Positions 10,422 through 52,777 of a stretch of DNA of 64,000 nt are shown here, piece by piece. This DNA comes from Squalus acanthias. Its lineage: Eukaryota. The stretch lies in assembly GCA_030390025.1 (NCBI GenBank), contig CM059432.1, positions 47,060,001-47,124,000 on the forward strand. Direction: 5' to 3'. The first letter of the stretch is position 1. The number at the start of each line of letters is the position of its first letter. A program made the position numbers and the translations under genes. The notes beneath the pieces were generated by a model that was given only the letters and a program-made list of their open reading frames with translations, did not search any database and was not told the DNA's origin.

Positions 10422-12594
10422 GAAGTCCCGTCGTCACACTAAGGACACCCTCCATCGTGTTGTGTGGCACTACCAACGTGCTAAATGGGATAGATTCAGA
10501 ACAAATCTAGCAGCTCAAAACTGGGCATCCATGAGGCGCTGTGGGCCATCAGCAGCAGCAGAATTGTATTCCACCACAATCTGTAACCTCATGGCCCGGC
10601 ATATCCCTCACTCTACCATTACTATCAAGCCAGGGGACCAACCCTGGTTCAATAAGGAGTGTAGAAGAGCATGCCAGGAGCAACACCAGGCGTACCTAAA
10701 AATGAGGTGCCAACCTGGGGAAGCTGCAGCACAGGACTACATGCATGCTAAAAAGCGGAAGCAGCATGCTTTTGACAGGGCTAAGCGATCCCACAATCAA
10801 CGGATCAGATCAAAGCTCTGCAGTCCTGCCACATCCAGTCGTGAATGGTGGTGGACCATTAAACAACTAACTGGAGGAGGAGGCTCCATGAATATCCCTA
10901 TCCTCAATGATGGTGGAGCCCAACACATGATTGCAAAAGACAAGGCTGAAGTATTTGCAACCATTTTCAGCCAGAAATATTGAGTGGATGATTCATATCG
11001 GCCTCCTCCTGAGGTCCCCACCAGCACAGAAGCCAGTCTTCAGCCAATTCGATTCACTCCACGTGATATCAAGAAATGGCGCAGCGCACTGGATACAGCA
11101 AAGGTTATGGGCCCTGACAACATCCCGGCTATCGTGCTGAAGGCTTGTGCTCCAGAACTAGCCGCACCTCTAGCCAAGCTGTTCCAGTACAGCTACAACA
11201 CTGGCATCTATCCGACAATGTGGAATACTGCCCAGGTATGTCCTGTCCACAAAAAGCAGGACAAATCCAATCCGGCCAATTACCGCCCCATCAGTCTACT
11301 CTCAATCATCAGCAAAGTGATGGAAGGTGTCATCGACAGTGCTATCAAGCGGCACTTACACACCTATAACCTGCTCACTGATGCCCAGTTTGGGTTCCGC
11401 CAAGACCACTCTGCTCCCGACCTCATAACAACTTTGGTCCAAACATGGACAAAGGAGCTGAATTCCAGAGGTGAGGTGAGAGTGACTGCCCTTGACATCA
11501 AGGCAGCATTTGACCGAGTGTGGCATCAAGGAGCCCTAGTAAAACTGAAGTCAGTGGGAATCGGGGGGAAAACTCTCCACTGGCTGGAGTCATACCTAGC
11601 ACAAAGGAAGATGGTTGTGGTGATTGAAGGTCAATCATCACAGCCCCAGGACATCGCTGCAGGAGTTCCTCAGGGCAGTGTCCTAGGCCCAACCATCTTT
11701 AGCTGCTTCATCAATGACCTTCCCTCCAACATAAGATCAGAAATGGGGATGTTTGCTGATGACTGCACAGTGTTCAGTGCCATTCGCAACTCCTCAGATA
11801 ATGAAGCAGTCCATGCCCGCAGGCAGCAAGACCTGGACGACGTTCAGGCTTGGGCTGATAAGTGGCAGGTAACATTCGCGCCACAGAAGTGCCAGGCAAT
11901 GACTATCTCCTACAAGCGAGAGTCTAACTACCGCCCCTTGACATTCAACAACATTACCATCACCAAATCCCCCACCATCAACATCCTGGGGGTCACCATT
12001 GACCAGAAACTTAACTGGACCAGCCACATAAATACTGTGGCAACAAGAGCAGGTCAGAGGCTAGGTATTCTACGGCAAGTGTCTCACCTCCTGACTCCCC
12101 AAAAAATTTCTACCATCTACAAGGCACAAGTAAGGATTGTGATGGAATACTCTCCACTTGCCTGGATGAGTGCAGCTCCAAGAACACTCAAGAAGCTCGA
12201 CACCATCCAGGACAAAGCAGCCCGCTTGATTGGCACCCCATCCACCACCGTAAACATTCACTCCCTCCACCACCGGCGTACCGTGGCTGCAGTGTTTACC
12301 ATCTACAAGATGCACTGCAGCAACTCGCCAAGACTTCTTCGGCAGCTCCTCCCAAACCTGCGACCTCTACCACCTAGAAGGACAAGGGCAGCAGGCGCAT
12401 GGGAACACCACCACCTCCAAGTTCCCTTCCAAGTCACACACCATCTTGACTTAGAAGTATATCCTCGTTCCTTCATCGTCGCTGGGTCAAAATCCTGGAA
12501 CTCCATACCTAACAGCACTGTGGCAGTACCTTCACCACGCGGACTGCAGCGGTTCAAGAAGGCGGCTCACCACCACCTTCTCAAGTGCAATTAG
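10422..12594 (+). pseudogene. LINE ORF2 (linker and reverse transcriptase) with an in-frame stop at 10981
   Basis: ORFs 10276-10983 and 10984-12594 share a frame; motifs [43 protein letters not shown]. Confidence 0.88.
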
Positions 12595-16598: not shown

Positions 16599-18376
16599 GG
16601 TCAGGATTTTGCTCATCTCAGCGGGTCCGGGGCGGGCGGCGTCAGTGGTGGGTCCCAACCCCGCAGCTGACTCCATCCCGCTGTCCAAAATGATTTTTCC
16701 TTGATAAGGTTTGTTAAGTCCACCCAGTGCATTTCCTGGTCCAATTAGAGGAAGCGGGTCTGATGACGTCATTTTGTGACGCATTATCAGCCAGTTTCCT
16801 TGAAGGGACCATGGACACCTTACTTTTGACGTTTGTGCTGTCAGTGTTCTACAGCATTGAAGTGCTGCAAACACTGACAATGACTGCAGAGAGGTGCAGG
16901 GCTGCACCCAGGTTCTCCCGTGACTCCCTCCATATGCTTATGGAGGGAGTCAGAGCACGCAGTGAGGTCCTCTTCCCTTCCGATGGGCGGAAGACACCTC
17001 CCCAGGAGATCAACACAGGCTGGTTGCACATTGCACAGGAGGGCACAAGCAGGGATGTCGACAGGAGGACCTGGGTGCAGTGGCGCAAACCTTTCAATTA
17101 TCTCATTAGATCACGAAACGTTAGTACAAAATCACACTCAACCTCATCCTGCTGTGCCTCTCATCACATCCCCATCACTCTGCCTTCCCTACCCTACGCC
17201 TGCACATCCTTACTCACACCAACTTACTTGCACCTCCACCCATCCCTCTCTATCTACATTATCACTTCCCCATCTCACTAGCCACCCCTCACACTCACCC
17301 TCATCCTAGTGTAATCATACCAACTAACAACACACAAGGGTAGCCACTTGGGTGTTTTATCCAATGTTCATGTAAAGTTTCTGTTAATGTGCTGTCAAAC
17401 ATTGAAATCTTTATTTTCAACACTTTGCATTCTTGGACAGATTTGTGTGCACCTTTGGAAGTGGCTTAGTGAGTTGCAGTGAATGGTGAGACATAACGGT
17501 ACCCCCCACAATGTCCATGAGTGTGAAAAGAATGGCTTGGGCATTGTAGGGATGCTTTATGGTGTTGGTGTGGGGTGGTGCCAACCTGGTGCATCATGTG
17601 GCAGCCAGGGTGTACAGCATCAAGTGAAGTAAATCTGGCCATGGTGAGGCCATCCCTGGCCTCCGGGGCAGCAATGTGCTCGGGTGCTGATGCCCTCTGT
17701 CCTGTGCAGCATCAGGTGATTGCAGAGAAGGTTGGTGTTGTTGTTGGTGCTGCTGGTGTGCCTGGTGCTGGTGCTGCTGGTGTTGGGGCTGATCGTGGTC
17801 GGATTCTGAGGACCAAGGTGAGACAGTATAAAGAGCACCCATGTTGATGGAGTAGATGACAGGTGAAGTACAGATGACAGAAGCATTCTGTCAATGGTGA
17901 GAGAGTTCTTCCAATGAGGTGATACTGGATGAAGAGTGGAAAGTGGAACGCCTGCAGAATCTGTGCTTGAAATGGACTGAGATACAGCTTGTGGCTGAGG
18001 AAAGTGATGATCTGTCAGGTGGGAGCTTTTACTGTACATTTTAAGCTGTCAAGTAATCAGCTGGAGCAATGGCCACTGAACTCCCGCCTCAGGTTGACAG
18101 CCATGGTCCCCGAACAGCGTGGTTCCCGTAGCCATGAAGCTAAAGTGAAAAGGTAAGTTAAAAAAGCCTGTTAATGATCTGTCAACTAGGCATTAATGAG
18201 ATTAATTGGGTCTCCTGCCGCTTCCTGTCGGGTCTGCTCAGCGCTGACAAACCCAACATTGGGAAAGGCACGTGGCAGCCGGTTGACAGCGGGGTCCCGA
18301 CCCACTGTCAAAAAAAATACTTTCCCACCCAACCCGCCACCGATCCCGCCCGCTGACCTTCCAGAAAATTCTGGCC
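16599..18376. mobile_element. Non-autonomous Harbinger (Myb exon 1 plus deleted transposase)
   Basis: TIR GGTCAGGATTTT / AAAATTCTGGCC, TSD TGT; AAPRFSRDSLHMLMEGV...WLHIAQE...RTWVQWRKPFN. Confidence 0.85.
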
Positions 18377-19028: not shown

Positions 19029-19093
19029 TATTCAACATTCTTTGAATTCAGTGATCGACTGGAGTTTATGATGGAAAAAGCCTATATATACAG
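19029..19093 (+). CDS. CNGB3: CNGB3-like exon (human exon 9 equivalent, S4-S5 linker)
   Basis: ttccccag|TATTCA...ATACAG|gtaggc; 65 nt; [21 protein letters not shown](R). Confidence 0.92.
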
Positions 19094-22000
19094 GTAGGCA
19101 GCCATTTGGATGACAAAATCAATGTATGTTTTGTGTGAAATTCTTTAACATTAAAAATGGTATGTCTATTGAAGCGATGTTAAGAAATGCAGTAGAATAC
19201 TGCTTGTAACATATAATATGCTGAAATTTGTCCCCTTTTTTTAGTCAAAATAAATGATGTAACTTAGTTTCTTGTTGTGTAAATGCTGATTTCAGAAGCG
19301 GCATTGAATTATCAACTGAACATACTTTTTCAAAGCTGCTGACAGAAATGAGTTTCCATTCACCAGGTAGAAACAAAGATGCCACACACAAAATAAAAAG
19401 CAAAGAGCTTATGGCTACAGTCTGTCTCAATCTTTGGCGGTCTGCACTAGCCTCAATTAGTCTACATTAATTCACATGGCACTTCTCAGTTTGTTCAGTA
19501 TAACCTCACTATACTGTCATCTCTGACTGTAATACACCTAATTTGTTTTTGAAAGCTCAATATTGACCCACCAGGTCTGTATCATATGCCGCATACTTTG
19601 ATGAGTAGTCAAAAAGACTGTATTGTTTGCCTAGAATCATGTGCTGAGATTGAAGCCAAGGGACTGTAGCAATAGGTTATTGTTATTTTCATTCTTTGGT
19701 TGACATTTCACTCTCTTTGCCTGGGGAATGCAAATTAATTTCTGCCAGCAACATTTAGATTTTCATTTCTGTGCCAGGTTTGTAATATATGAAATAAAAG
19801 TAGCGATATCGAACACCAAGTAGTGAGAATCTGTTAGCAGCTAGGATTTGAATTGCAGCTGCATACAAAGCAGCCCAGATTTTCTGTTTATGTGGAATTA
19901 GGACACATCTTTGACATGATGGAAACCCCACCCATCACAAAGATGTGGCCCCTTGGCCTTGGTCAATTTTCCAGCCTCAGACCATTTAAATAATTTGATG
20001 GGCTTGCTGGCCTCCAGGTTGACCTAGGAGGCCTGTCGGCAGCATCGTATGGCTGGTGACTTCTGTGCTGCCAGCTGAAGATTACAAAACAAAAATGAAA
20101 TATTTAGAAATCATACCAAAGCCTATGCAACTCATCATCCTGCAGTCTATTGCACAGGCTTTCCAAATTTTTAAATTTAAATTCCCTCCCCCCTTCCCTC
20201 TCCCCGCCATAGCGATGCTTAGATGAAGGGACTGAGTGTAATGTTTCCAAGTTTGCTGATGATACAAAGTTAGGTGGGAAAGTAAGCTGTGAAGACGCAA
20301 AGAGGCTGCAGAGAGATATAGACAGGTTGACTGAGTGGGCAAGCACATGGCAAATGGAATACAATGCGGGGAAGCATGAAGTTATCCACTTTGGTAGGAA
20401 AAACAAAAAAGCAGAATATTTTTTGAATGGTGAGAGATTGGGAAATGTTTGCACTCAGAGGGACCTGGGTGTCCTTGTACATGAATCACAGAAAGTTAAC
20501 ATGCAGGTACAGCAAGCAATTAGTAAAGCAAATGGTATGTTAGCTTTTGTTACAAAGGGATTAGAGTATAAGAGTAAAGAAGTCTTACTACAATTATACA
20601 GTGCATTGGTGAGGCCACACCTGGAGTACTGTGTACAGTTCTGGTCTCCTTACCTAACGAAAGACATATTTGCCTTAGGTGCAGCGAAGGTTCAGTAGAC
20701 TGGTTCCTGGGATGAGGGATTGCCTTATGAGGAGAGATTGAGTAGACTAGGCCTATATTCCTTTGAGTTTAGAAGAATGAGAGGTGATCTAATTGAAACA
20801 TACAAAATTCTTAAGGGGCTTGACAGGGTTAATGCTGGGAAAATGTTTCCCCTGGCTGGGGAGTCTAGAACACGGGATCACAGTCACAGAATAAGGGGTC
20901 GGCCATTTAGGACTGAGATGAGGAGAAATTTCTTCACTCACAGGGTTGTGAATCTTTGGAATTCTCTACCCCAGTGAGCTGTGGAAGCTCATTCGTTGAG
21001 TATATTCAAGACAGAGGTCGATAAATTTTTGGGAACAAAGGGAATTAAGGGATATGGGGATAGTGCGGGAAGGTGGAGTTGAGGTAGAAGATCAGCCATG
21101 ATCTTGTTGAATGGCGGAGCAGGCTTGAAGGGCCAAATGGGCTACTCAGCTCCTATTTCGTATGTTCTTATGAATCTAGGGACAAACACTGGCGCTCAGT
21201 GTTACTCTGGCGCAAGTGACAGAATATTCATTAAATGACACATTTCTGTCATTTGAATATCATTATAACATGCCTATGCCCATATATAGGCAGGTGTATT
21301 GTACATCACCCATCACTTCTGGCAGGGAATTAGGGGGATGTAAAAATGGATGTGGACGGGGTGGAGCACATACTAATCCATTTCCTACATCTGCCTATTC
21401 CAATTCTGCCAAAAAATCAAAGTGGGAAGGTGCGAGATCCTGCCCATCATGTCCTTTACTCCTTCGCTAAGCATTCAATAACAGATTGCCACCCCCTAAC
21501 ATTCGGTAACAGATCCCAAAGTCCCTCCCCAATATGGGGTAAAAGATCCAGTGATCTTTTCTGACAGTTCTCCCCCAGTACTGAGTGACAGATAATAGCA
21601 TTGACTGCCAATATTGAGTGACAGGTCCCAATGTTCTCCCCAATACTGAGTGACATATTTCAGTATCCTCCCCCAATATTGAGTGACAAAACCTAGTGTC
21701 CTTCACCAAAACTGAATGACAAATCCCAGTACCCAGGAGTTCTAACCAGTGTTCCCTGTAAGCTGCGTTTTGTTCTGCGCGGCCTGTTTCTTTTAGTGCG
21801 CGGTCCCTTTAAATTTCCGCACATGAGCGGTATTTACAATGGGGAAACCGGTGAGCGGCCCGCGCGGAACCTTTCCCATTACTGCGCGGCCGTGCAGCTT
21901 AAAGGGAACATTGGTGCTAACTCATGAAATTTACCTCTAATAATCAACAGAGGTTATGTTGAGACTTTATAATGCACTTAAGAAGATAAAAACCGTAAAT

Positions 22001-25000
22001 GCTGGAAATTTGAAATTAAAACAGAAAATGCTGGAAATATGCAGCAAGTGAGTAACAAAGAAAGAGATAAGGCAGGTTTGTGGTGTAATCCTTTGTCAGT
22101 CTGAAACTGAAAGATAAGCAAGTATTTTAGAATGCTTTTATAACTCGGAAGTACGGGTTTCCCTCAGCTTCTGCCGAATTTAATGGCACAACCTGATTAC
22201 CATTTTTGGAATCCATTTCCCGGTCGCAGCCAGCCAGATTGAGAGACTGGCTGGCTGTCGGGCGGATAGGCCTGCGGCACCAGGCAGCAGCTGTGGAGTG
22301 TGGAGGAGGGAGGAGGAGGATTGTGGGTCAGGGGGCATCAATAAGGGGGCCTGGAGAGATCACAGGCCAGGTAGAAGATTAGGGGTGAGTTCGGGGAGAA
22401 GATTGCTGGGGGTCCAGGGAGAAGATTGCGGGCCATGGAGGACATCGGGAGGGCATCGGATTGCAGGACGGAGGGTCCCATTGTGGGAGGGGGGGTCCGA
22501 TTGCTAGGGAGGCTAACAGGGTAGCTTGGGGGGCTGGAGGAAGCACTCCCACTGGCCCACAAGCATGCTGGAAAGGCACTTACCTGTTCCATCCAGCAGT
22601 CCTCGCCTCCCTTCAGCTGTTGGGTTTCCCAAGGCCTGGGAAACCTGGTCGGCCAGTACTAAAGCTGGGAACAGAGATAAAATCTTAGGCACGCTGCCTA
22701 ATTAAAATATTTAAATGAGGGACCTGTCTCCTGAGAGCGGGTTGGTCACCCGCCCCCCGTCCCGCCTCTGTTAAAACCAGAAGTGGGCGGGTTCGAGGCG
22801 GTTTGGGTTCAGGCTTGAAATTTTTAACATTTTTACTTCCCACCCGACCCAAGCCCATCCATTTTTGGGGATTAAATTTACCCCCAATGTGGGCTACAAC
22901 CCTTATCTTTCATTATACCTTCCTTGAGGTGGTACATTCCATTTGCACAATGGTGCTCTACCTGTGAATACCACAATCTGACAAAACTCATCCCAACTGT
23001 TACAGTTAGATGAATCATTAGATTAGATAGCAATCTAAAAGCCAATACTACAGCCACTTTGTTGCAAAGCAAGTAGTTCACCATTAATACGAACTAGCAC
23101 ATATGTTTCATTCTGTTTACAGAGTTGCACGAACAACAGGATATCTGCTTTTCCTTCTGCATGTAAATGCTTGTATGTATTACTGGGCTTCAGAATATGA
23201 AGGCATTAGCAGCAATAAATGGGTCTACAATGGCAAAGGAAACAGGTAAAAGTTTCGTCAGATCCTGTTTGAGATTGTCACTGCAAAAATTGAAAAGCGA
23301 ACAATTAGCACGGCACACATCACTTTTCTAGGCCAATGATTATATTTTCACACTAACAGACAACAATTTCAACCTTTGGCTACATATGGGTGTGCTTTAA
23401 AATTCAAATCCACTGATGTTCTGCATTTACTGCCTGCATCTCTCTTACCTGCAAATGTGCGGCTCCTTGTCTCTGGCCTGCTACCCACTGCTCACCTACC
23501 CTGGCATGTTGTCCCAGAGGTAGAGTGAGAGAGAGGGAGAAGAGGGTTGTAATGGGCGGTGGCCTTTGGCAAAAAGCTAGTGAGACACAATATTCAAATC
23601 AAGTACAATTTAAAGAGTTCTTTTGGCTAGTTTGCAGGACTTCACTGAGCTTGAAACTACCATTTGTCACTAGAACTTCAGCAATAGTTTTATAATTTAC
23701 CAAAGATTTTATTGGTTAAATTCTGCAGTTAATTTCTTTAACATCACAATTATGTTAGCCTTCCATGTTAAAAAAAAGGATGGACTATTTTAAACCATTA
23801 TCCAATTCTCTGGATCAAAAAAGCAGTTCTCTAATCTTGGGGTCCAGGGGGGCGATTTTGCCAGCCCTGGGGAGGCAGGTATGGAGGCAGGACTGCCGGG
23901 AAAATGGCAAAATTTGGGGGCGGGTGCCCAACCCGCCCCCAACCCGCCTCCGTGCCATCTTGCCAGGAGGCGGGTAGCCGTCCCACGCCGGGTCCCGTCT
24001 CCTTGGAGGCGGGAAGGGTTAAAGCCTATTAACTGCCTGTTAACAGGTAGTTAACAGGCAGAAAATAGGATTATCCCCTTTTTGCTCTCACAAGTGCGGG
24101 CTTCCCGAAGGCTCCGAAACCTGCCAGGTCAGCAAAGTGAGTACTGGGTCTGCGGGGGTCGGGGGGGGTGGGGGCTGCAAAAGTGTGCTGTGAAGGTAAG
24201 TGCTGGGTGCAAGAGTGGAGAGGTGAGTATCTGAGGTAAGTGCAAAGTGTTAATAAAAGTGCACTTACCTTTGTTTCTTCCTGCAGGCTTTAGTCGGTGT
24301 GTATGCGGAGAGTCTAAGACCTCCGTGTTGGAGATGACAGATGGCCGTTGCATTCTCAGATGCAACAACCATCTCATTTCTGTAAAAGAAAGAAGTTTGA
24401 TGAGGTCTTGAATTCAAGACCTCATCAAACTACAGAGAATGTCACTGTTTGACAGCTTCACAGAGCTATCAAACGATGACAATTCATCTGTCAAAAATTT
24501 TTGACAGATGAAACGCCATACGTTGAGGTTTTCTGCAACCGGCTTTCCCTTAATTGGCCTGCTAAACCCGCTGGGCGGGCTTAACAAGGTCAATCAAGGG
24601 AAAATAGCGTGGGTTGGCCAGAAGTTGATGGAGGCGGGACTGAAACCCGACAAGTGCGAGTCCCGCCTCCAAAAGCTCCCCATTGAGAAAATCATCCCTC
24701 AGCTCTGCTGCTACAGTTTAGAAATTCCATTCATTACATTGCCTTCCAATCACACGTGGGTATCTGTGGACATAATGCAGAACATTCGAGTTAATCATTT
24801 ACTGAAGCAATTACTAGCAGGATTACATACAAATTGTTTGTTGTTTATATTTCAAAATCTAAGTCTGCTTGTCCTTTTTACGTTGCAACATGTATTTTTT
24901 CCTTAAGTGCTGCATTGCTTCACTTGCTGCATATGACTAATATATATTGCATTATTTCTTCTCTTTGAAACTGCACGGTACCTGCATTTTCTTCTCTGAA

Positions 25001-28000
25001 CATTGAATTTATTTATTTTCTTCACATTTTAGAAAAAAGCTTTAATGGTAAATTGTTATTTTTAATCATGTGGCATCAGTTCATACTTAAACTTGAAGAT
25101 GAATATTTTCTATTTTTCTTTTTTCATATATTTCTTTTTTCTTCTTGCCCTGTTGATAATTTTTTTAGCTACATCAGCTGTTTCCTTTATGCGGAGAAAT
25201 CCCTTCTGATGATTGCTGAGCTTCCATACCCCACCAATGAATTTGAGCAAATATTTCAGATGTGCAACTATTTTTTAGGAGTTCTTATTCTTTCAGCCAT
25301 TCTTGGTCAGGTATACTTAACAACTTTGTTATTTTTATTAACGTCTTAAAATAATACTACCTTTTTTTCTTGAAAATGCTTAAGTTATTTTACCAGAAAG
25401 AAGCCTTTTGTGCCTGATTTTAATCTATTATTTTTGTTTTCAGTTCTTTATAAGCTGCTAGATTTCCAATTGATTTTTGGCCAGCTCAATTGCAAATCTC
25501 GAACTGAATAGTTAGCAAAATCTCCTTGATACCAAAATAAAAGACACGGAAAATACATTAAAAATACAAGATTTAGGACCTAATGGGCGAAATGGTGACA
25601 GGTACAACATAATATAGACAAGAATAAAATAGTAGTAATAAAAAAGTCACTTTTATATAGCAGCAACATGTTAAAACACTTTCATAGAACAATCACTAAC
25701 AATCACTATTAGAGTGCAGTGATTGTTGTTATGTAGACAAGTGCAACAGCAATATCCCACAAACAACAATATGAATGACCAGTTAATCTGTATTTTTTTG
25801 TATTTTGTTTATTTGTTCTTTGGAAGTGGCAAGACTACATTTTTATTGCCCATCCCTAGTTGCCCTGAGAAGGCGGAGGTGGGCCTTTCCCTTGGACTGT
25901 TGCAGTCCTGTGGTGATGGCGCTCCTACAGTGTTAATTATGCCTCATATTCCAGGATTTTGGCCAAGTGGCAATGAAAAAACAGCAATACATGTCTACTT
26001 CAGGATGGAGGACTCAGTGATGGTGGTGCCATTGAAGGTCAGAGTTAGGTGAGTGGGCCTTTTCTTTGGAGATGGTCATTGCCTGGCATTTGCATGGCAC
26101 AAATATTACCTGCACTTGTCAGCCCAGACCGGGATGTTATCCTGGTCCTGCTGTAGACTGGCATGGGCTGCTTCATTACTGAATGGAGCTGAACACTGTA
26201 GAATCATAAGTGAACAGTCCCACTCCTGACCTTATGACAGAGGGAAGGTCATTAATGAAGCAGTTGAACATGGTTAGGCTAAGGACACTTCCCTGAGGAA
26301 CTCCTGATGTCCTGGGGCTGCGAAGATTGGCCTCCAACAATCATGACCATCTTCCTTTGTGTCAAGTGTGACTCCAGTCACTGGAGGATTTTCCCTTGAT
26401 CCCTTTTGGCCTCTTTTTTGCTAGTGCTCCTTGAAGCCATACTAAGTCAAGCGCTGCCTTGATGTCAAGAGCAGTTACTCTCACCTCTCCTCTGGCATTC
26501 AGCTATTGTGTCGATGTCTGGATCAAGGCTATGATGAGGTCTGGAGCTGAGCAGTTCTGATGGAACTCAAATTAAGCGATAGTGAGCAGGTTATTGGTGA
26601 GTCGGTATTGTTTGATGGCACTGTTGATAACTCCTTCCATGGCTTTGCTGATGATTGGGAGGAGCCTGTTTGGGCAGTAATTGGCACATTAGCTTTATGT
26701 CGATAGAGTTTACTGGACAGTTTTCCACATTGTTGTTTAGATGCCAGTGTCATAGCTGCACTGGATAGTTTGGCTGAGTGGGGTGGGGACACTACACTGT
26801 ACCCAGTGCACTCAGTATGGAAATGGTTGAGGAGGAATATTGGCTAGAGCATTAGAAGAACTCTTACTTTTCTTTGAATAGTACTATGAAACTTTCACAA
26901 CTACCTCTGGTTAATAGTGTCTCCAAGAATGCAGCATTACCTTAATTTTCACCTCATTCCAGTGAATTTTTAAATGTATTGGCAGTTAGTAAATGTATTA
27001 GCCTCATCAAATTTTCTTGGAGATTTTGCTTTCTGTATACCCTTATCCAAATACCGATTGCAGTAGTCAACCTAGATTATGCACTCAAATCTAACCTTCT
27101 GAACCAAAGTTTACCATTTGAGCTAATCTATCATATAGTAATTAGTAAGGGAACCAAAGTAAGGAGTGCATGGGTAATTTTCCAACTTCATATTTCCAGT
27201 GAGTTACCAAGAGAGGCAAATTTAAAATTCAGGCACATGCTGCATATGCTTTTCCTACCATCCTGGCCACTGTCTAAGGCTGAACAAGACAGTTCACAAC
27301 CTCTGCGTCCAATTTAACCCCAAGCTGAGCTTCCGACCCCAAATCCTCTCCATCACCAAGACCACCTACTTTTACCTATGTAATATCGTCCATCTCCGCC
27401 CCGCTTCATCTCAACTGCTGCTGAAACCCTCAGCCATGCCTCTGTTATCTCCAGACTCAACTATTCCAATGCTCCCTGACCGACCTCACACCCTCTCTAA
27501 ACTTTAGCTCTGCTGCCTGTATCCTAACTCGCACCAAGTCCCATTCACCCCTCACCCCTGTGCTTGCTGATCTACATTGGCTCTCGGTCCGGCAATGCCT
27601 CGAATTTAAAATTCTCATCTTAGTGTTCAAATCCCTCCATGGCCTCGCCCCTCCATCCCTTTCTCTGTAACCTCCTCCAACCCTACAAACCTCCGAGAAC
27701 TCTGTGATACTCCAATTCTGGCATTTTGTGCATCCCCGATTTCCATCAGTCCAGCTTTGGCAGCCGTGCCTTCAGCTTCCTAGGCCCTAAGCTCTGGAAT
27801 TCCCTTCCTAAACCTCTCTGCCTCTCTTTCCTTCTTTAAGACACTCCTTAAAACCTACATTTTTGGCCAAGCTTTTGTTCACCTCTCCCTAATACCTCTT
27901 TATATGACTCGGTGTCAAATTTTGTCTGATAATGGGATGTTTTACTACATTAAAGGTGCTATATAAATGCAAATTTTTGTAGTTGTGCTTGGAACATTGT

Positions 28001-31000
28001 GGGCAGCACGTGTCAGAATTTCTGACATTCATTCTTGCAGGGTGAGGCTCCCCACTAGGGCCTCAAAGCCAGAAAAAAATGTTACTTGGAACAGTGATAA
28101 AATTTGCGAATTATGAAAGAGATCTCGTCGATCAATCAATTAAACCGTCAGCACAGTGCTTAACTGTAGTAAAAACTGGCAATTAAGGTAATGGTCTGCA
28201 TTAGTACAGATAGAGTATAAATCTAAAGAGGTTGTATTGTGCTGTATAAGACACGGATAAGATCCCCTCTGGACTACTGCATGAGCTTCTGATCATCTAT
28301 ATAAAAGAAGAATATTATTGCCCTTGACAGGGTACGGAGGTGAGCAATAAAGATGATTCAGGTATGAAAAATGTATTTTATGAGGAAAGATTTAGGAAAT
28401 TGGGCTTATTTTCCTTGACAACTTTAGGTTTTCACAATTATTATGAAAAATGCCTAATTTCATCCAGGCGAATTATTCATTATGGTGAAAGGTTCAAATA
28501 ACAGAGGACACAGGTTAAAAATTAAGAATAGGAAGGAAAGTCAGACACCAAAGGGGTAATAAATTTATGACTTAAATTACAAAGGAAAGCAGTTGAATTA
28601 TCAATGGATTTAAGAGACAATTGGATTTGTTTTATTCATTCATGGGATGTGGGCATCGCTGGCAAGGCCAGCATTTATTGCCCATCTCTAATTGCCCTTG
28701 AGAAGGTGGTAGTGAACCACCTTCTTGAACCTCTGCAGTCCGTGAGATGAAGGTACTCCCACAGCGCTGTTAGGGAGGGAGTTCCAGGATTTTGACCCAG
28801 CGACGATGAGGGAACAGCGTTATATTTCCAATTTCTGGAGAGAGAAGGGGTTGAGGGATATGGTGAAATGGTGGGTTGGTGAGGTTGAGCTATGAAAAAG
28901 GCATAGGGCTAAAAGTTAAGGTGTTTTACACCACCCGTTACCGGCATAATTTAGTGAAAACACAGCGGCCACCACACTTTCGTGAGCTGGTGGCGGGTTC
29001 CACAGCATCCGCCATTTTCCAAGGGCCAGCAGCACTACCGGTAAAACGATGGCCCTGCAAATGTAAATTAGGGAGAGGGTGATGTGCACACTGACTTGTA
29101 GGGGGTGGTGTGTGGGGTCAGCCTTCACCTCTGACTCAGTGAGCGGTTCGAATCGCTCCCACGCCCCTGGTTCTAGACTTTGGACTTATTTAGGGGTTGT
29201 GAACAAAGACGCAGTAGACAACAGGTTCTGATGAAAGAGTTTTGACTTTATTAAAAGAAAAAGGTAACAAACGTAAAACACACTTAATGCTTAAACACAG
29301 GTTGGGGAACACACGGTACAGGTGAGGGAGAATGACAATATGCAAAAACCCTTATCCCTCCCAATCCCACTGTCTAGCTAGGTTCCAATTTCAAAGAATC
29401 AGGGATAATGCTCACCAATGACAGTTCTTGACAGTTGAGGTATTTCATGATTTCGGGGTTCACTGAGGTTTTTGGTTGTTGGGACCTGCCGTACCCCGGA
29501 TGTGGTAGAAGACTCCAGCTGCACTCCAGGTCAGTTTGGGTTTGTCCGCTGATGCGGTAACGCGGTTATGGATTTTTCTGGTAAGTACCCACTTTTCTTT
29601 GATAGAAGTAGGGAAAGTAAAGTTTTTGTTGGATACTTTAGCTTGTAGGGTGGAAACTTCGGGTTTTGCTCTTCCAATGGTGGTCTGGTCGTTGAGTTTT
29701 GTTGCAGTTGGGGTCCGGTTGGTGGCCTTTGGTGTCGGCTCGGTCGCGGCAGCCTAGATCATTACCTGAGTGCTGGTTATCTGAAGGTCCTGGTGGTTGG
29801 TCGTTGCGCGGGGCCTTGGTCCCCACGATACTTTTAAATGGCGGTCTGCCTCATGGAGCCCTTGGTGGCTCTGGTAGTCGAGTGGTTGCGTTGGAGGCCT
29901 GTCGGGGGCGGTACCTCCTGGAGCTGGACCGTGGATTGAGCGATGCCAACTCGCTCCCAGCCTCCAGTGACCTTGGCTAGTGGCTGTTAGTGCTGGACCG
30001 TGTGCTGAGCGATGCCGACTCGCTCCCAGCTCGTGGTCTCAGTTCTAGACCTTGCCTGGCCTTGTCTGTACCTGCCTCCGATCTCGCCTCGGGTCTGCCT
30101 CGTGGCCTTGCTGCTTCTTTCCTCCTCCTGCTCGTGGCTTGTGGTGTCTTGCTGGAACTGGAACTGGAACTGAGCTGAGAGAGACTTTCTTGGGGGATTA
30201 GGCCCCCAATTATACTGTTCAGGCCCTTTGTCTTTTTCGCGCCCAAAACCCCTTTACTAAATCGGTTTCATTTAGGTTTCAGTTGAGGCCTGTTCATTCC
30301 ATTGTCTTAGTTTTGGCGGGCTTGTTAAGTTTTGATGACTTTAACTTGGTGTTAAATTGTCCTGATGGCTTCCGATGTCTCCCATTTAGGCAGGGCCTTT
30401 ATCTACGTGTCAAATCTTGACCCTATTGTCTTAGGTTTATTGGCGGGCTTGTAAATCTGTCCCTGTGGATACTTGGTTGATTGGTTTTTGATGAAGTAAT
30501 AGGTGTACTAGATGTTTCATTGTTTTCAGGCTTCTGGTATCCTGTTTGGGCCTGGGAATTTCAAAAGGGGTCTTGGATTATTCATATTTGGATGTGTGTG
30601 TGAGGTTTTGGGTTTGTCTCTTCCTCCTTGGTTGGACTGCAGTGTAAACAATTCCCAGACAGCTTGACTGGGCCCCAATACCCAAAGCTGTCCACTGCCT
30701 TGCCACACCCCTCCGCAGCCTGTCTTGTGTCTGTGAAAGGTGTCTTTCCCAACAGTAGGATTCAAAAGCCATTTTCCTCAGGGTTTTTCTTCCCTGATCT
30801 TTAAAATGTCCAAAACTGAGGTTTTTACCTCAAATCACTTCACTTAGGTCCCATCATCCCAAGTTTGTATGAAAAGTCCAAAAATCACTCCCTTAGGGTT
30901 CTGTTTGAGTTTCTGGGGGATTTTGCGAAGCTTACAGACTTAACGCCACCTCGGCAAACTTGGACCTTAGTGCTGAGTTCAGCGTTAGGTCCTAAGCTAG

Positions 31001-34000
31001 CCATGAAAACCCAGCATTCAGCAGACTGACAGAGGTGCTGTCACCACCTCTTAAAGCGACACACACATCTTTCAGGTAAGTTTGCATTTAAGCTTTTGGA
31101 GTGGATTTTTTTTTTATTTTATTGAAGTAGTGTCTTCCTACAAAAGTTTTTTAAGTGGGCAGGGAGTGCTGCTGGATGCTTGCAAGGCCTCAGATGGTAA
31201 AGGAAGGCCTCTGAGAAGACAGAAAATGCTGCAAATACTCAGCAGGTCAGGCAACATCCGTTGAGAGAGAAACAGAGTTCACGTCTCAGTTTGAGATGCT
31301 GTCTGACCTGCAGAGTATTTCAGATTTACAGCATCCATTTGCAGAGGGAAGAGGAAGACACAGAAGAGGAAGACGCAGAAGAGGAAGACGCCGCAGAGGA
31401 AGCCACAGAGGAGGAGGAAGCGGAAGGAAGGATGCAACCCAGACAGCGCCTTTCAAGCTGGGATATCTGGGATAGAATCATCCGCCTGCGGTACCGGTGA
31501 CCACAACCCCAATTCCACTTTCAGCATTTATCCCACACCTTACTTTCCCTCTGTTACTGACCATCACAGCATGCTTTTGGCCACAATGCTGAAATAAAAG
31601 CCACCACAAAGCAAACTTTCCAACCCAACTTTATACATCTATCCATCCAATATGACATCAAGAAATCAACTCATCACCCTTATGCATTCCCTTAGTGACT
31701 GTCATGTGTGAGCCTTTGCGTATCCTACTGATGTCACACAGTGCTACCCCAGTGGCTCTTCCTCCTCCTCCTCATCCTCCTCATCCTCACCCTCCTCGTC
31801 CTCTTCCCCTCCCTCCCCTGGCCATGGGCTCAGCCATTATCCTGCCAAGAATGGCCAGCACCGTTTCCTCCAAGGGCATGAGGAGAAACTAGGAATGGGA
31901 GATGTGCATCGTTTTTGATAGAGATTGTTGGTAGGTGAGTGATTGCGGTGGGGGAGTTGTGCATTGAGCAATGTGTGAGGCTAGTGATGCAGTTGGTATG
32001 AGACAACTTTTGAAGATGCATTCACTGACCTTGACCAGTGGTCTAAAGTCATGAAGCTTCTTTGGGCACTGGAGCCAGGTGGTGGGGGGCGACATTGCTG
32101 GCAGTGACAGCCTCGATGATGTGGTGCCACATCGTTCTTTCTGGAGGACCTCCTGGCCCCTGTGGGTACAGGACCTTTCTTGCAGTGTTAACTCCCTGTA
32201 CAAAGCTGGAGTGCTGCATGCGAGACCCTGGGTGGCCCTTCCCTGGCTTGCTAAGCCATTTGTGTTGGTGCTGAAGCACTCTTCCCCTTTTTTTTAGATG
32301 CGGAAGGGAATTCGGCTTTAAGAGCTGAAGATTCCCATTTGGGAATTTTTTTTCAAATGTAAATTTTTTTTTTCAGGACGCAGTTGAGCTTTAAGGGCTG
32401 AGATAACACATTTTTACATTGTTTTATTTTTATAATTTCAGAAGTCATTGCCCATTTCAGAACACGACACTGCATTGCCCTTTTAACATCCCACAATGCT
32501 TTGCGAAATCACAGCCTCGCTTTCAGAGGCTGTGCAAAGCTGCAATGCTACTTCTGGACACCACATTGGGGCCTGATGCCAGGGTGAACACCACCAGGAG
32601 GGTATTACACGGTCAGATTAGCGCTGGGCTAATAATCATTAGTCCCCTGTGCAAATTTTCACTCCTACCGGTGCCACCATTTTTGGCGGCCGTTAACCTG
32701 CGACTGCGGTGGCACTGGCAGGTTTCGTGTCACACTCGAATTTTTAGGCCATGGTCTATATAGGCCTAAATTTGCCAGCTTGGCTCAGTTGGTAGCACTC
32801 CACCCATAATCCAAGCTGATAACTCAGTACAGTTCGGAAGGAGTGCTGCGTTGTATGAGGTGCCATCTTTGATCTAAAATATTAAATTGAGGCCTTGACT
32901 GCCTGTTCATGTGGATGTAAAACATCCCATGACACTATTTAAAGAAAAGCAGGGAGTTCTCTAGCTCATTCAATCATCTCATTTGTTGTTTGTATGACTT
33001 TGTTGTGCATAAATTGGCTGCTGCACATAACATAACTGCACTTGAAAAATAATTAATTGGCTGTAAAGCACTTTGAAATTTCCAGAGAATGTGAAAGGCA
33101 CTCTGTAAATGCAAGTTCTGTCTTTTTTCAAATCCTTCTTGTTCTTAGAAATTTTAATGTTCTAACCAACAATGTACATTCTGAATTTTTCCCCTAATTT
33201 AAATATGGTTTCAACTGCTAAAAAATATTTGTGTTCTCCAGGTACCTGAGGTGTTACTATTGGGCAGTCCGCACTTTGATTACTATTGGTGGCATTCCCG
33301 AACCAGTCACTGTCTTTGAAATAATCTTTCAGGGGTGCAATTATTTCACAGGTGTCTTTGTGTTCTCCAGCTTACTTGGTCAGGTAAATGGATATGCCTC
33401 AGAATGGATCACTGTTCATTACAGTGTATTCATTGTATCACTTTTAAATTGTGCGTCAAGCCAAAGAATAAAAGCAAAGGCTGAGGCAAAGGTTTGAAGC
33501 AAGTATTGCTGAATCAAATACTAGTAAATAAAAAGTTGTGTACACTTTATTACACTATACTAGAAAACTCTGTTTCCCAAGTTTGACATGAGGTGGAATT
33601 GGTCTACAATTGACTATTTTTATTTTAAACCTTCAATAGTCCATAAGCATTGCATTACTCTGCAAAAACACTTAATGAAACTGCCAATGTTGAATTGATC
33701 TGTTAAACAATTCCTTTTCAGTGGGAGAAGGATATTCAACCCAAATAATACTAATGGAAGTCTTTTAAGATAATTGGTAAAAAAAACAGGGGGAGATGAG
33801 GAGAATTTTTTTACTCAGCAAGTTGTTATAATCTGGAATGCATTGCCTGAAAGGGTGAAGGAAGAGGATTCAATAGTAACTTTCAAAAGGGAAGCAGATA
33901 TATAATTTAAAAAACATTTTTGCAGGACTACGAGGAACGACCTAACCCTTCAGTTACACTTGCGATTTTAAGGCTCTCACCAGATACTTCTCTCATGCTC

Positions 34001-43000: not shown

Positions 43001-46000
43001 CACCACCGAACTTTTCCCCCTATGCCTCTATGAAGTCCAGGATCCAGAATGCTTTTTTAACCGCTTTCTCAACGTGCCCTGCCACCTTCAATGATTTGTG
43101 CACATATACCCCCAGGTCTCTCTGTTCATGCACCCCCTTTAGAATTGTACCCTTTAGTTTATATTGCCTCTCCTCGTTCTTCCTACCAAAATGTATCACT
43201 TCGCACTTTTCAGCAGTAAATTTCATCTGCCACGTGTCCGCCCATTCCACCAGCCTGTCTATGTCTTCTTGAAGTCTATCACTATCCTCCTCACTGTTCA
43301 CTACACTTCCAAGTTTTGTGTCATCTGCAAATTTAGAAATTGTGCCCTGTATACCCAAGTCTAAGTCATTAATATATATCAAGAAAAACAGTGGTCCTAG
43401 TACCGACCCCTGGGGAACACCACTGTATACCTTCCTCCAGTCCGAAAAACAACCGTTCACCACTGCTCTCTGTTTCCTGTCACTTAGCCAATTTCATATC
43501 CATGCTGCCACTGTCCCTTTTATTCCATGGGCTTCAACTTTGCTGGGAAGCCTATTCTGTGGCACTTTATCAAATGCCTTTTGGAAGTCCATGTACACCA
43601 CATCAACCGCATTGCCCTAATCAACCCTCTCTGTTACCTCATCAAAAGACTCAATCAAGTTAGTTAAACACGATTTGCCTTAACAAATCCGTGCTGGCTT
43701 GCCTTAATTAATCCACTCTTGTCCAAGTGATTGTTAATTTTGTTCCGGATTATCATTTCTAAAAGGTTCCCCACTACCGAGGTTAAACTGACAGGCCTGC
43801 ATTTGCTGGGTTTATCCTTACACCCTTTTTTGAACAAGGGTGTAACATTTGCAATTCTCCAGTCCTCTGGCATCAGCCCCATATCCAAGGAGGATTGTAA
43901 GATTATGGCCAGTACCTCCGCCAGTACCTCCGCAATCTAAGAGTTAACACACCCGGAGCCCATAAATGATTGACTCTTGGTTAGGTAGTCTCCAAGATCT
44001 GCAAATGAAGAGTACAATGAAACAGCTTGACAATAGAAGATAAAGCAAGCTTACTGCAGAACTTAATGAATGGCCTGAATTTTAATCGGTGGCAGGTTGG
44101 CAGTGAGGGGGGTGCTTGGAAGCAGTCGGGAAACCTGAATTTAATGGCAGGGCCTAATTTGCATGGGAAACCTCTGTTTCCCACTCGCAGCCAGACAGAT
44201 TGAGAGGCTGGCTAGCTGTGGATGAGTAGGCCTGCAGCACTAGGCCGTAGAGAGGAGGGAGGGAGGGATCACGTGGGGGCCAGGGGATGGCCAGAGGAGG
44301 ATCGGGGGGAAGGGTCGGGACCAATCGAAGGGCTGGAGGAGCAGTGGGGGGGTCAGGAACGATCAGAGGGCCGGAGGAGCAGTGGGGAGGGGGGTTGGGA
44401 ACAATCGGGGGCCGGAGCGGCTGATCAGAGGGCCGGAGGAGCTGGGGTGGGGGGGAGGGATGGAGGGGGCGGAACCGAGTGTGCATTGGAGGGCTGGAGG
44501 AGCTGGGGTGGTGGCCGGGTGAGCATTGGAGGAGCGGGGGATGGGGGGAGTGGGTGCAGGTGCGCATCAGAGGGCCGAGAGCAACACGGGGGGACAGAGG
44601 CAGCAGATCGGGGAGCCAGGAGCAGCAGCACAGGGTCCGGAGCAGCATGGGTGGTTGAGGCCTCATTGTGGGTGGGGGGGGAATCGGAGGACAGGGGGGG
44701 GAATCGGAGGCCTCGTGGGGCGTCTGCAATCACGGGGGATGGATTAGGCAGGGAAGCTGGATCCAGGAGGTAAGTGTAAAGGCCCTTACCTCCTGGATCC
44801 AGCAGTCCTCGCCTTACTTTAGCTGGCAGGTTTCACGAGGACTGCAAAACCAGACTAGCCAATGTTAAATTTAAAATGGAGGTTAAATCTGAGGCACACC
44901 AGCCTCATTATAATATTTAAATGGAATACGCACCTTCTGGGAGCGGGTTGGCTTCCCCCCCACCCTGTCCTGCCTCCATTAAAATTGGAAGTAGGCGGGT
45001 TGGAGGCGGGTTCTGGTCAGGATTCTGACTTTAACACTTTAACTTCCCACCCGACCCAAACCCACCCATTTTTTGGGGTTAAAATTCCCCCCAAAATGTC
45101 TGATGGGTCTGCCTTTTTCCTCATTTTCAGATGCGTGATATTATCGGGGCCGCCACTGCAGGGCAGAATTATTACCAAACCTCTGTGGACAACACAATGA
45201 CATACATGAATATGTATTCAGTTTCAAGATACGTGCAAAATCGCGTGCGTAAATGGTATGAATACATATGGGAATCACAAGGCCTGCTGGGTATGTAAGC
45301 TGAGTCCACGCTGTGCTTCCTATTTCAGAATTTCTCTGGCGGCTTCTTTGACATTAAAAAAAACACAATATTTCTTTCAGATGCATCTGAGCTATTGGAA
45401 GATATGCCAACAAAGATGCAGCTGGCCATTGCTATTGATGAAAACTATGCGATCGTCAGCAAAGTTGACCTGTTTAAGGTATGTATGTAAAATGTTAACC
45501 AGTCTGCTAAAAATCAGCATGTGTATATAACAGAGTTTATTATTGCCTTGAGTTGACTGGATTCTGTCTACACTATTAACTATGGGAATCGTGCTAAAAA
45601 GAAGTTCAGATGAATCACTAGATACAGCTTTTAAACTGCAAGTACACTATTGAAAGTATGCTTCAAAATTCTTCTGTGTGTTACTTTTGGGACACTGTTT
45701 CACGTGTTTGCATTAACTTCCTACCTGTGCTATTTTAACATATTTATTAACTCATTTAAAATAATAGTACACATGGAAGTTTGATGCAAACATGTTAACC
45801 AGTCTGCAAAAAAAATCAGCATGTGTACATAACAGAATTTATTAGAGCCAACAATGTTTCACATTGTTTCTCTATTAGTGTGACAGCCATAAACAATACT
45901 TGTTGACTCAGAGCTAGTGCTATATCAACGCAAAAGTAAGAGGCTGCAATATATTTTTCTTGTTGACCCTAATTTTAAAATATTGATATTTTCATCCCTG

Positions 46001-52000: not shown

Positions 52001-52777
52001 ATTGTTAATGCTGAAGAAATGCAGTGCTCCAGAGAAATTAGGTTACTCCCTGCAGTGAAATGATCAAACTTAAACGTGTCGGTCCTTGGTGAAATATGCA
52101 TCAGCTTCCAGCTCTAGACTGTGGCATTTGTCGCAGTTGGTTAACTTTGGACAGCAATTATAAGCGACAAGGTAATATCGGCAATAATCTTTTCTTTTCG
52201 GTGTCTAAAGGTTCTGTGCTTTTTGCCAAGAGAATCTGAAATTAACTATTATAAATAACCTGTTATACACTGCATCCTGTGTTACTGGTTTTTAACAAGC
52301 ATGTTTTGTTCTTAGGTGAAATCATAATAGACAATATAATTTTTTGGCCTAGATAAGAACTAGTTTCAGTGGTCTCAGGTAAACAGCCCACTGTTGCAAG
52401 GTGGAGAGTATGCCAAAGTCCACGCGACAATGAAACAAGGTTTCACATAGTCAGTAACTCCTGTATCAATATAACTTTAGTAAATCATGCACATAGGCAG
52501 CACCCACACCTGGGAAGAACAGCATAGGGATGGGAGGAATTGTCGGTAGCAACCCTAGAGTTCTATCCATAATTCAGTAAACAAGAAAGAAGTAACATTT
52601 TCCAGGTATTTATAGATTTAGTGCTGTCTAAAAGCCACTAAAATGCTTATCTTATTGGACTTTAATCAATATTGTATTGCCATGTCTCTCCAGGAGTGTG
52701 ACCAAGAGATGATATATGAAATGCTGCTCAAGCTGAAGTCAGTTGTATATTTGCCTGGTGATTTTGTATGTAAGAAG
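19029..52777 (+). CDS. CNGB3: Cyclic nucleotide-gated channel beta subunit (CNGB3-like), partial multi-exon gene: 19029-19093, 23123-23245, [25169-25310 or 33242-33383], 45131-45290, 45381-45478, 52694-52777
   Basis: Manual splicing at AG/GT sites gives one open frame: [45 protein letters not shown]...[21 protein letters not shown]...[17 protein letters not shown]...[35 protein letters not shown]. Exon sizes 65/123/142/160/98/84 match human CNGB3 exons 9-14 as recalled. [20 protein letters not shown] and KVDLFK favour CNGB3 over CNGB1. Flanking exons were not found in the window. Confidence 0.9.
20215..21172 (+). mobile_element. CR1 LINE 3' fragment
   Basis: [43 protein letters not shown]; tail TATGTTCTTATG. 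Confidence 0.9.
21560..21730. repeat. Degenerate tandem repeat, about 34-40 bp unit
   Basis: Repeated core ctcccc(c)a(g/a)ta(c/t)tgagtgaca, about 5 copies. Confidence 0.6.
21747..21913. mobile_element. hAT-type MITE (167 bp)
   Basis: TIR CAGTGTTCCCTGTAAGCTGC / GCAGCTTAAAGGGAACATTG; 8-bp TSD GTTCTAAC/GTGCTAAC. Confidence 0.8.
22150..22885. mobile_element. MITE-like repeat, related to 44072-45092
   Basis: Shared blocks gcagccagccagattgagag, atccagcagtcctcgcc, cttcccacccgaccca and end AAATTTACCCCC. Confidence 0.65.
23123..23245 (+). CDS. CNGB3: CNGB3-like exon (exon 10 equivalent, S5 and turret)
   Basis: tttacag|AGTTGC...AAACAG|gtaaaa; 123 nt; [40 protein letters not shown]. Confidence 0.93.
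23848..24699. mobile_element. Harbinger-like MITE with internal palindromes
   Basis: Ends GGGGGCGATTTT / AAAATCATCCCT flanked by CAG..CAG. Confidence 0.65.
25169..25310 (+). CDS. CNGB3: Duplicated, divergent pore-helix/filter/S6 exon (candidate mutually exclusive alternative exon)
   Basis: Long pyrimidine tract ...ttttttag|CTACAT...GGTCAG|gtatac; 142 nt, phase 2 to 0, open; [47 protein letters not shown] aligns without gaps to the canonical pore exon (22/47 identical). Confidence 0.8.
25830..26770 (-). mobile_element. Degraded LINE RT/3' fragment (6160 family)
   Basis: Reverse complement of tail (tttattgcccatccctagttgccctga) and RT remnants (gccttgatgtcaagagcag). Confidence 0.75.
27310..27972 (+). 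mobile_element. L2 LINE 3' fragment
   Basis: ctccagactcaactattccaatgct (SRLxYSNA), tacattggctc (LHWL), aaaattctc; tail taaaggtgctatataaatgcaa. Confidence 0.75.
28906..32750. mobile_element. Degraded Harbinger with nested LTR
   Basis: Ends GGGCTAAAAGTT / AATTTTTAGGCC; acidic transposase tail at 31340-31500 (+); Myb remnant 31830-32280 (-). Confidence 0.65.
29097..30936 (-). mobile_element. Probable solo LTR or deleted LTR element (1.84 kb)
   Basis: TGTA...TACA termini, 4-bp TSD GACT both sides, AATAAA on minus strand near 29248, no coding homology recognised. Confidence 0.65.
32780..33118 (+). mobile_element. tRNA-derived Deu-domain SINE (SacSINE1/AmnSINE-like), degraded
   Basis: tggctcagttggtagcactc head; gtggatgtaaaacatcccatgacactattt core; L2-like tail gaaaggcactctgtaaatgcaag. 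Confidence 0.7.
33242..33383 (+). CDS. CNGB3: CNGB3-like canonical pore/S6 exon (exon 11 equivalent)
   Basis: ttctccag|GTACCT...GGTCAG|gtaaat; 142 nt; [47 protein letters not shown]. Confidence 0.95.
34360..37112 (+). mobile_element. CR1 LINE ORF2, frameshifted
   Basis: [58 protein letters not shown]; tail (ATTCTATG)n. Confidence 0.92.
37470..38505 (-). mobile_element. 5' part of the tRNA-headed LINE (second copy)
   Basis: Head GTAGCGTAGTGGTAATG...GAGTTCAAATCCCACC at about 38410-38503, then [25 protein letters not shown] and [10 protein letters not shown]. Confidence 0.85.
38530..41222. mobile_element. Harbinger remnant: transposase (+, to 39239) and Myb gene (-, about 41220-39447)
   Basis: [57 protein letters not shown]. 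Confidence 0.85.
41502..41651. mobile_element. 150-bp MITE (Harbinger/Tourist-like)
   Basis: About 38-bp TIRs GGGGATCATTTTGATTTTGGGCAATGGTG / CACCATTGCCCAAAGTCAAAATTATCCCC; TSD ATT. Confidence 0.8.
41719..43915 (-). mobile_element. CR1 LINE 3' half, split by a MITE
   Basis: [37 protein letters not shown]; tail (ATTCTATG)n. Confidence 0.92.
42329..43020. mobile_element. GC-rich Harbinger MITE
   Basis: GGTAGAAAAATTGGG...CCGAACTTTTCCCCC with TSD TAT; interrupts CR1 cleanly. Confidence 0.82.
44072..45092. mobile_element. MITE-like repeat (22150 family)
   Basis: GGCCTGAATTTTAATC...GTTAAAATTCCCCCC; G-rich low-complexity centre. Confidence 0.65.
45131..45290 (+). CDS. CNGB3: CNGB3-like exon (exon 12 equivalent, C-linker)
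   Basis: ttttcag|ATGCGT...TGCTGG|gtatgt; 160 nt; [53 protein letters not shown]. Confidence 0.94.
45381..45478 (+). CDS. CNGB3: CNGB3-like exon (exon 13 equivalent, C-linker)
   Basis: ctttcag|ATGCAT...TTTAAG|gtatgt; 98 nt; [33 protein letters not shown]; preceded by a 90-nt intron. Confidence 0.93.
46993..51321 (-). mobile_element. Full-length Ty3/Gypsy LTR retrotransposon, CsRn1-like
   Basis: LTRs 46993-47222 and 51077-51321 (TG..CA), TSD CTAT, PBS TGGTGACCCCGA (tRNA-Trp), PPT GGATTCTGGGGGGAGCTG, gag-PR-RT-RH-IN order. Confidence 0.95.
47243..51036 (-). pseudogene. gag-pol polyprotein, frame break near 50715, protease DTG changed to NTG
   Basis: [72 protein letters not shown]. Confidence 0.88.
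52694..52777 (+). CDS. CNGB3: CNGB3-like exon (exon 14 equivalent, start of CNBD)
   Basis: ctctccag|GAGTGT...AAGAAG|gtaatc; 84 nt; [28 protein letters not shown]. Confidence 0.94.

Follow-up and report, generated by a model that had tools for sequence, protein, structure and literature searches.

Neighbouring exons that are ancient, homologous and equal in length, and that are used one at a time to alter channel properties, are known from the Cav and Nav channels and from the flip/flop exons of the AMPA receptors. In the invertebrate Cav3 T-type channels, the exons 12a and 12b shift the selectivity between Na+ and Ca2+. The present work concerns a related arrangement in CNGB3, the gene for the beta-3 subunit of the cyclic-nucleotide-gated (CNG) channels, in a 64,000-nucleotide (nt) stretch of the genome of Squalus acanthias (GenBank assembly GCA_030390025.1, contig CM059432.1, positions 47,060,001 to 47,124,000 of the forward strand), in the following referred to as the window. 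The pore exon of this gene is present as two tandem homologous copies, here called exon A and exon B, which are probably used one at a time and with functional consequences.

The pore exon covers the selectivity filter, a region in which alpha and beta subunits differ. According to the part of PMC10761061 available to us, a filter glutamate of the alpha subunits is essential for both permeation and block by Ca2+. Beta subunits carry a glycine at this site, leaving native channels with three negative charges and not four, and a pore-helix arginine (R403 in CNGB3) or lysine (K841 in CNGB1) is directed towards the filter. Ca2+ binding is expected to be weakened by both. In the same part of that source, the lack of the glutamate is treated as a fixed trait of the beta subunits, which explains the weaker Ca2+ binding of native rod and cone channels compared to alpha-only channels. 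Ca2+ block is described there as much enhanced in a Gly-to-Glu mutant of CNGB1, and R442 is named as the arginine gate of CNGB3.

Two exons of 142 nt, each preceded by AG, followed by GT and ending in GGTCAG|GT, had been described in the initial annotation, and both were recovered when the sequence was re-read directly. The borders of their neighbours were also as claimed, with the S5 exon ending at 23245 and the C-linker exon starting at 45131. Counted after the first base, each of the two exons holds 47 codons without a stop. Recomputation of the gapless alignment of the two peptides gave the same 22 identical residues out of 47, and 84 of the 142 bases were identical. In a chance control covering every 47-residue frame free of stops on either strand of the window (23,670 frames), 15 or more identities to exon B were found only in exon A (22) and in exon B itself, and a tblastn search of A against B returned E = 1.5e-13. 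No third copy of the pore exon was detected in the 64-kb window, either by the stop-free frame comparison or by tblastn. The intron between A and B is 7.9 kb long and rich in repeats.

The reading frame places a strict limit on how the two exons can be combined, and the rule proposed earlier was confirmed. Only the inclusion of either A or B on its own preserves the frame. Inclusion of A followed by B shifts the frame and leads to a TGA after 25 codons of exon B, and since 142 is not divisible by three, skipping of both exons shifts the frame as well. Exclusivity would thus be enforced by the frame itself, and double or null forms would be removed by nonsense-mediated decay. The choice of exon also affects the codon that is split at the S5 junction (23244-23245 plus 25169 or 33242), which reads AG|C, serine, with exon A and AG|G, arginine, with exon B. 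The two shark isoforms therefore differ at 26 positions and not at 25. Public proteins agree with this assignment, the junction being GKGNS-Y in the A-type protein P0001 and GKGNR-Y in the B-type protein P0004.

Judged from its protein matches, the window carries the middle of an intact CNGB3 gene, with exons running from the S4-S5 region to the start of the binding domain and no stop or frameshift in any of them. The closest protein was P0001, CNGB3 of Pristiophorus japonicus, which is identical at 156 of 174 residues over the five flanking exons and contains Ion_trans (E 5.5e-23) and cNMP_binding (E 2.7e-18) domains. Compared with chains of solved structure, P0001 scored 741-772 bits against CNGB1 and CNGB3 (E about 1e-222 to 1e-231), but only 297-306 bits against CNGA chains (about 1e-90). 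All named relatives of either exon are called CNGB3, except for one partial bird record labelled beta-1. Exon B of the window falls inside a clade of 49 CNGB3 rows with a support of 98. The glycine typical of a beta-type filter is present in exon B (T-I-G-G) and absent from exon A (M-I-A-E); this deviation is the core of the present finding and does not count against the identity of the gene.

Orthologous copies of exon A, as expected if the exon is kept, were found intact in CNGB3 proteins of both cartilaginous and ray-finned fishes. When the exon A peptide was used in a word-based search, three protein clusters out of 11 candidates matched, with identities of 47/47 to Pristiophorus CNGB3, 46/47 to a CNGB3-like protein of Scyliorhinus canicula and 40/47 to CNGB3 of Callorhinchus milii. 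In these three chondrichthyan clusters, 10 of the 12 members have exon A in the place of exon B, including all S. canicula isoforms X1 to X7. The remaining two are S. torazame (P0004), which has TIGG, and a fragment with neither exon. A HMMER search with exon A against 1.84 billion protein representatives (E ≤ 0.001) gave 88 matches. Two chondrichthyan proteins were followed by 13 proteins with 64-72% identity across all 47 residues, among them a CNGB3 model from the bichir Polypterus senegalus (KAG2458381.1). The canonical pores ranked after these 13 proteins, mostly at 40-51% identity, with a few up to 57%. A profile built from 11 A-type peptides was run on 6192 candidates and gave 60 matches; both searches see cluster representatives only. 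The 42 named matches comprised three chondrichthyan, one bichir, one gar and 37 teleost clusters, nearly all labelled CNGB3 or CNGB3-like, and the proteins with an A-type exon included some named cngb3.1 in trout and cngb3.2 in carp. No tetrapod, lungfish, coelacanth or cyclostome was found among these 42 cluster representatives. Models with the B-type exon come from 12 further elasmobranch clusters and from every tetrapod listed. Exon B of the window has 45 of 47 residues in common with Pristis and 42 of 47 with gar isoform X1, and is 81% identical to the human CNGB3 clusters listed.

Either/or use of the two exons was examined by opening ten clusters and classing their members by pore segment. 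Pairs of predicted A and B isoforms of equal length were found in six species, namely gar (705 amino acids), chum salmon (783), pink salmon (781), turbot (739), Eleginops (657) and pikeperch (651). The two members of each pair differ at 25-26 positions, all within the 47-residue segment. In the bichir, an A-type and a B-type model lie on the same contig, and Ensembl-derived records of both types exist for rainbow trout. A complete A-type CNGB3 protein of 610 amino acids, P0128, is encoded on a contig of 2226 nt. An open reading frame (ORF) of this length leaves no room for introns, and the contig therefore represents a spliced transcript. Models in which part of A is fused to B, or in which both exons are included, occur in Perca flavescens, Danionella, Albula, Coregonus, Dissostichus and Neogobius (P0114, P0115, P0151, P0153, P0154, P0156 and P0157). 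These chimeras are evidently annotation errors caused by the tandem exons. Their structure implies the same order, A upstream of B, in those genomes. The pair shows five features of mutually exclusive exons born by tandem duplication: homology, equal length and phase, splice sites of their own, frame incompatibility and conservation. The earlier proposal of candidate mutual exclusivity is hence supported by the frame rule in the window, by the six predicted isoform pairs and by one spliced A-type contig, the latter two from other species.

Exon A is, by direct comparison of identities, at or above the conservation of the constitutive flanking exons in three cartilaginous fishes. The identity of exon A was compared with the 156/174 of the five flanking exons in Pristiophorus (Fisher p = 0.016), with 142/174 in S. 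canicula (p = 0.0045) and with 103/174 in Callorhinchus (p = 0.00094), where one defectively modelled exon lowers the flank identity. The core of the pore helix and filter (F5, Y7, A8, E9, K10, L12-I15, E17-P19 and P21) was invariant in all 11 A-type peptides. Over long distances exon B is the more conserved of the two, as seen for gar (42/47 for B vs 35/47 for A). Neither stops nor indels were present in 50 properly spliced A-type segments, and the distinct segments free of both numbered 29 for the A-type and 58 for the B-type. These patterns indicate that both copies are under purifying selection.

The identity between A and B is 20-22 out of 47 in all eight species compared. This uniformity points to a single old duplication without later homogenisation and argues against recent conversion. 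A tree was built from 87 distinct segments. Its 29 A-type rows formed one group (SH-aLRT 100), attached outside the group of 49 gnathostome CNGB3 B-type rows (SH-aLRT 98); its 47 columns do not settle how A is placed with respect to the CNGB1/CNGB3 split or to the beta genes of the lamprey. From the presence of exon A in both cartilaginous and bony fishes we infer that the duplication is older than their split, and at least as old as the jawed vertebrates. The suggestion of an old duplication kept by selection is thus borne out by the intact A orthologues, by the fully supported clade and by the conservation above the flanks in cartilaginous fishes. Against solved pores, exon A scored 30-34 bits with beta subunits, closer than the 16-20 bits with alpha subunits, and it accordingly descends from a beta pore exon. 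An origin of exon A from an alpha subunit was considered and rejected on the same scores.

One position of the pair deserves separate mention. At exon position 32 (25263-25265 and 33336-33338) a cysteine is found in the motif Q-x-C-N-Y-F in both shark exons and in the lamprey CNGB-Y protein P0250. The exons of bony vertebrates have other residues at this position. Either the two copies have both retained the ancestral cysteine, or local conversion has taken place.

In human CNGB3 (chain 8etp_D, 809 residues), the exon aligns to residues 394-440, its positions 10, 16 and 17 corresponding to human residues 403, 409 and 410. By this alignment position 10 is R403, and positions 16 and 17 are the two filter glycines. 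Exon A has a glutamate at position 17 and keeps a lysine at position 10, with another glutamate beside it. Besides this exchange of glycine for glutamate, the filter of exon A differs from that of exon B by Thr to Met and Gly to Ala. R442, the arginine-gate residue, sits two residues inside the exon that follows, and this exon is common to both forms. Exon A thus restores the filter glutamate and adds a glutamate beside the pore-helix lysine or arginine. In a channel of three alpha subunits and one beta subunit, the ring of three glutamates would become a ring of four, with stronger binding and block by Ca2+ and an altered share of Ca2+ in the current. Ca2+ entry through the cone CNG channel drives light adaptation, and splicing would in this way tune Ca2+ entry and feedback in cone-type photoreceptors.

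A link between the gene and cones is suggested by reports, available to us in part, that the little skate, which has no cones, and the Greenland shark, which has rods only, carry CNGB3 as a pseudogene, and that the two cngb3 paralogues of zebrafish are expressed in cones, with preferences for different cone types. The decay of CNGB3 that accompanies cone loss appears to tie the gene as a whole, with both its exons, to cones. The choice between the exons would be made by regulated use of splice sites. Exon A combines a long pyrimidine tract with a weak donor (GTATAC), and exon B a short tract with a better donor (GTAAAT). A second AG within exon A may be a conserved tandem acceptor, and isoform X2 of S. 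canicula (P0009) is without exactly the three residues that its use would remove. Because the Gly-to-Glu exchange enhances Ca2+ block in CNGB1, the exon pair is read here as a splice switch of Ca2+ block or permeation. That an A-type subunit would give a more electronegative, alpha-like filter with stronger Ca2+ block is a prediction for which the chances seem evenly divided. The broader proposal, that non-tetrapod jawed vertebrates tune Ca2+ permeation or block of cone-type CNG channels by splicing and that this switch of about 450 million years was lost or silenced in the tetrapod line, is put forward tentatively, as somewhat less probable than its negation.

Several points weigh against this reading, some of them directed at its calcium part and others at the splicing itself. 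Behind the calcium hypothesis stand a single aligned position and a mutant made in another subunit, CNGB1. The changes from Thr to Met and from Gly to Ala in the A filter could narrow or disable the pore contribution of the beta subunit. In an AlphaFold2 model of P0001, made from a 28-row A-type alignment, the residues of exon A formed a helix, then a loop and then a long helix, but with a mean pLDDT of 47 and a pTM of 0.34 the model was too weak to be used. The absence of A-type exons from tetrapods, lungfish, coelacanth and cyclostomes is weakly supported, because only representatives were searched and the A and B isoforms share one 90% cluster. Mutual exclusion in the window is deduced from the frame rule and the comparative record. 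The six isoform pairs are pipeline predictions, and such predicted variants need transcript support. All seven listed isoforms of S. canicula are of the A type and 13 elasmobranch clusters, including S. torazame, are of the B type, and both forms were never seen within one cartilaginous species among the listed models.

The exchange of T-I-G for M-I-A and of several S6 residues in exon A is also what would be expected if the switch were real but served another purpose than the tuning of Ca2+ in cones. The A form could then be a poorly conducting or gating-modifying partner, associate with another alpha partner, or act in pineal, parietal, olfactory or sperm cells. The use of A in all catshark models fits this explanation, as catshark retinas are rod-dominated. 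On the other hand, shark exon A keeps F35 and V38, which we take to be the cavity-gate positions of S6, the decay of CNGB3 upon cone loss ties the gene to cones, and the CNGB1 mutant is a direct precedent for an effect on Ca2+. Another purpose is therefore regarded as the strongest of the alternatives, though on balance rather unlikely.

The uniform catshark models, together with the lack of any listed cartilaginous species with both forms, could also reflect a choice fixed by lineage. Both exons would then be present in this shark, but only one of them, for example A, would ever be spliced, the other being kept by chance or decaying slowly. This is difficult to reconcile with the window itself, where both exons are intact and have splice sites. 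The close match of exon B to Pristis, the B-type models of the 12 further elasmobranch clusters and the complete identity of exon A with the sawshark peptide show that both copies have been conserved, and conservation over hundreds of millions of years is unexpected for an unused exon. In addition, ray-finned fishes show both forms in one species in six cases. A fixed choice is thus considered improbable. The view of exon A as a dead duplicate, a pseudo-exon in decay that gene predictors occasionally include in error, deserves hardly any credence, for although the clearly mis-spliced A/B chimeras show that predictors stumble at this locus, the conservation data already contradict it (no stops or indels in the properly spliced segments, an invariant pore-helix and filter core, conservation above the flanks), a spliced transcript contig carries exon A, and the 9-nt alternative acceptor modelled in catshark X2 has its AG present in the window.

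The preferred reading, an ancient pair of pore exons used one at a time with a possible effect on Ca2+, would have several consequences. If it is true, many fishes can make two types of cone channel from one gene, differing in Ca2+ entry. Under the broader proposal, the choice between Gly and Glu in the filter would possibly differ by cone type, retinal region or pineal. A switch lost or silenced in tetrapods would have escaped a field built on mammalian channels. For genome annotation, the tandem exons yield chimeric or arbitrary gene models, and CNGB3 pseudogene calls in rod-only sharks should weigh both exons.

The initial annotation had stated that no such case was known for the pore of a CNG channel. 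This stands for the literature searched, in which no description of such an exon pair was found for any CNG channel and in whose full text three A-type peptide motifs gave no match. It does not stand for the databases, as the isoforms are already predicted in many fishes. They sit unremarked in RefSeq, in Ensembl-derived UniProt and in GenBank, and exon pairs of this kind are well known in ion channels. In the part of a study of CNG family evolution (PMC9803222) available to us, the words "exon" and "pore" do not appear, and transcripts at least 95% identical were collapsed before analysis. Family-wide studies collapsing transcripts in this manner have passed over the pair.

The features of the locus are collected in Table 1.

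Table 1. CNGB3 exons and splice-site features of the window (positions are those of the window).
Feature	Position	Strand	Observation
CNGB3 constitutive exon, S4-S5 region	19029..19093	+	tblastn to shark CNGB3 P0001, P0004 and P0005; AG/GT borders
CNGB3 S5 exon, ends with two bases (AG) of the split codon	23123..23245	+	37 of 40 residues as in Pristiophorus P0001
Pyrimidine-rich tract of about 65 nt and acceptor AG before exon A	25100..25168	+	read directly; putative regulatory role
Exon A, alternative pore exon (pore helix, MIAE filter, S6)	25169..25310	+	142 nt; donor CAG|GTATAC
Possible tandem alternative acceptor in exon A	25169..25177	+	second AG at 25176-25177, would drop three residues
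Exon B, canonical pore exon of CNGB3 (pore helix, TIGG filter, S6)	33242..33383	+	142 nt; donor CAG|GTAAAT
C-linker exon 1, first residues MRD with the arginine gate of beta-3; shared by both isoforms	45131..45290	+	shark CNGB3 matches
C-linker exon 2	45381..45478	+	shark CNGB3 protein matches; borders read
First exon of the cyclic-nucleotide-binding domain region	52694..52777	+	shark CNGB3 protein matches; borders read

Other sequence in and around the window was recorded as well. An ORF fragment at 2-436 (+) contains a DDE_Tnp_4 domain of a Harbinger-type transposase (E 3.5e-20). A 536-residue ORF with an RVT_1 domain (E 4.5e-39) at 10984-12591 (+) belongs to a LINE-like element in the intron upstream of the S4-S5 exon. 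Two similar ORFs at 16718-17278 and 57667-58302 (+) probably represent a single repeat family; the first contains a Myb/SANT-like DNA-binding domain (E 4.3e-05). In four runs from other organisms, the depth of the DNA contigs at about 20300-21300, 24000-24700, 27200-29100 and 31000-32000 was thousands-fold above that of the exon regions; these intron stretches are high-copy repeats shared among those taxa. DNA contigs of two runs from other organisms (X9 and X10) span 24669-25596 with 33 differing letters and 33050-33500 with 15. A 98-residue metagenome protein from JGI/IMG, P0166, named "sorbitol-specific phosphotransferase system component IIBC", was found in the salmon CNGB3 cluster and is apparently fish DNA mislabelled in a metagenome.

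The nearest counterparts of the shark pair are the isoforms of ray-finned fishes in RefSeq, in which both exon types recur at the corresponding site of CNGB3, as in Lepisosteus oculatus (XP_006634394.1, B-type, and XP_015209839.1, A-type). The CNGB3 isoform pair of Oncorhynchus keta (XP_035597531.1 and XP_035597532.1) has the same exon types. The intron between A and B is only a few hundred bases long in one teleost-like record, in which the ORF P0021 reads through both exons, compared to 7.9 kb in the shark. The alternative exons of the Cav and Nav channels and the AMPA receptors encode parts of S3-S4, of S6 or of the extracellular ligand domain, whereas the CNGB3 pair encodes the selectivity filter of a CNG channel. 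The Cav3 exons 12a and 12b are likewise alternative exons near a pore, but they belong to another channel family and encode the turret of domain II. The CNGB1 Gly-to-Glu mutant (Xue et al. 2022, as cited in the available part of PMC10761061) is likewise a beta subunit with the alpha-type filter glutamate. That mutant is man-made and changes a single residue of the rod subunit CNGB1, whereas exon A is natural, belongs to CNGB3 and changes 24 other residues besides.

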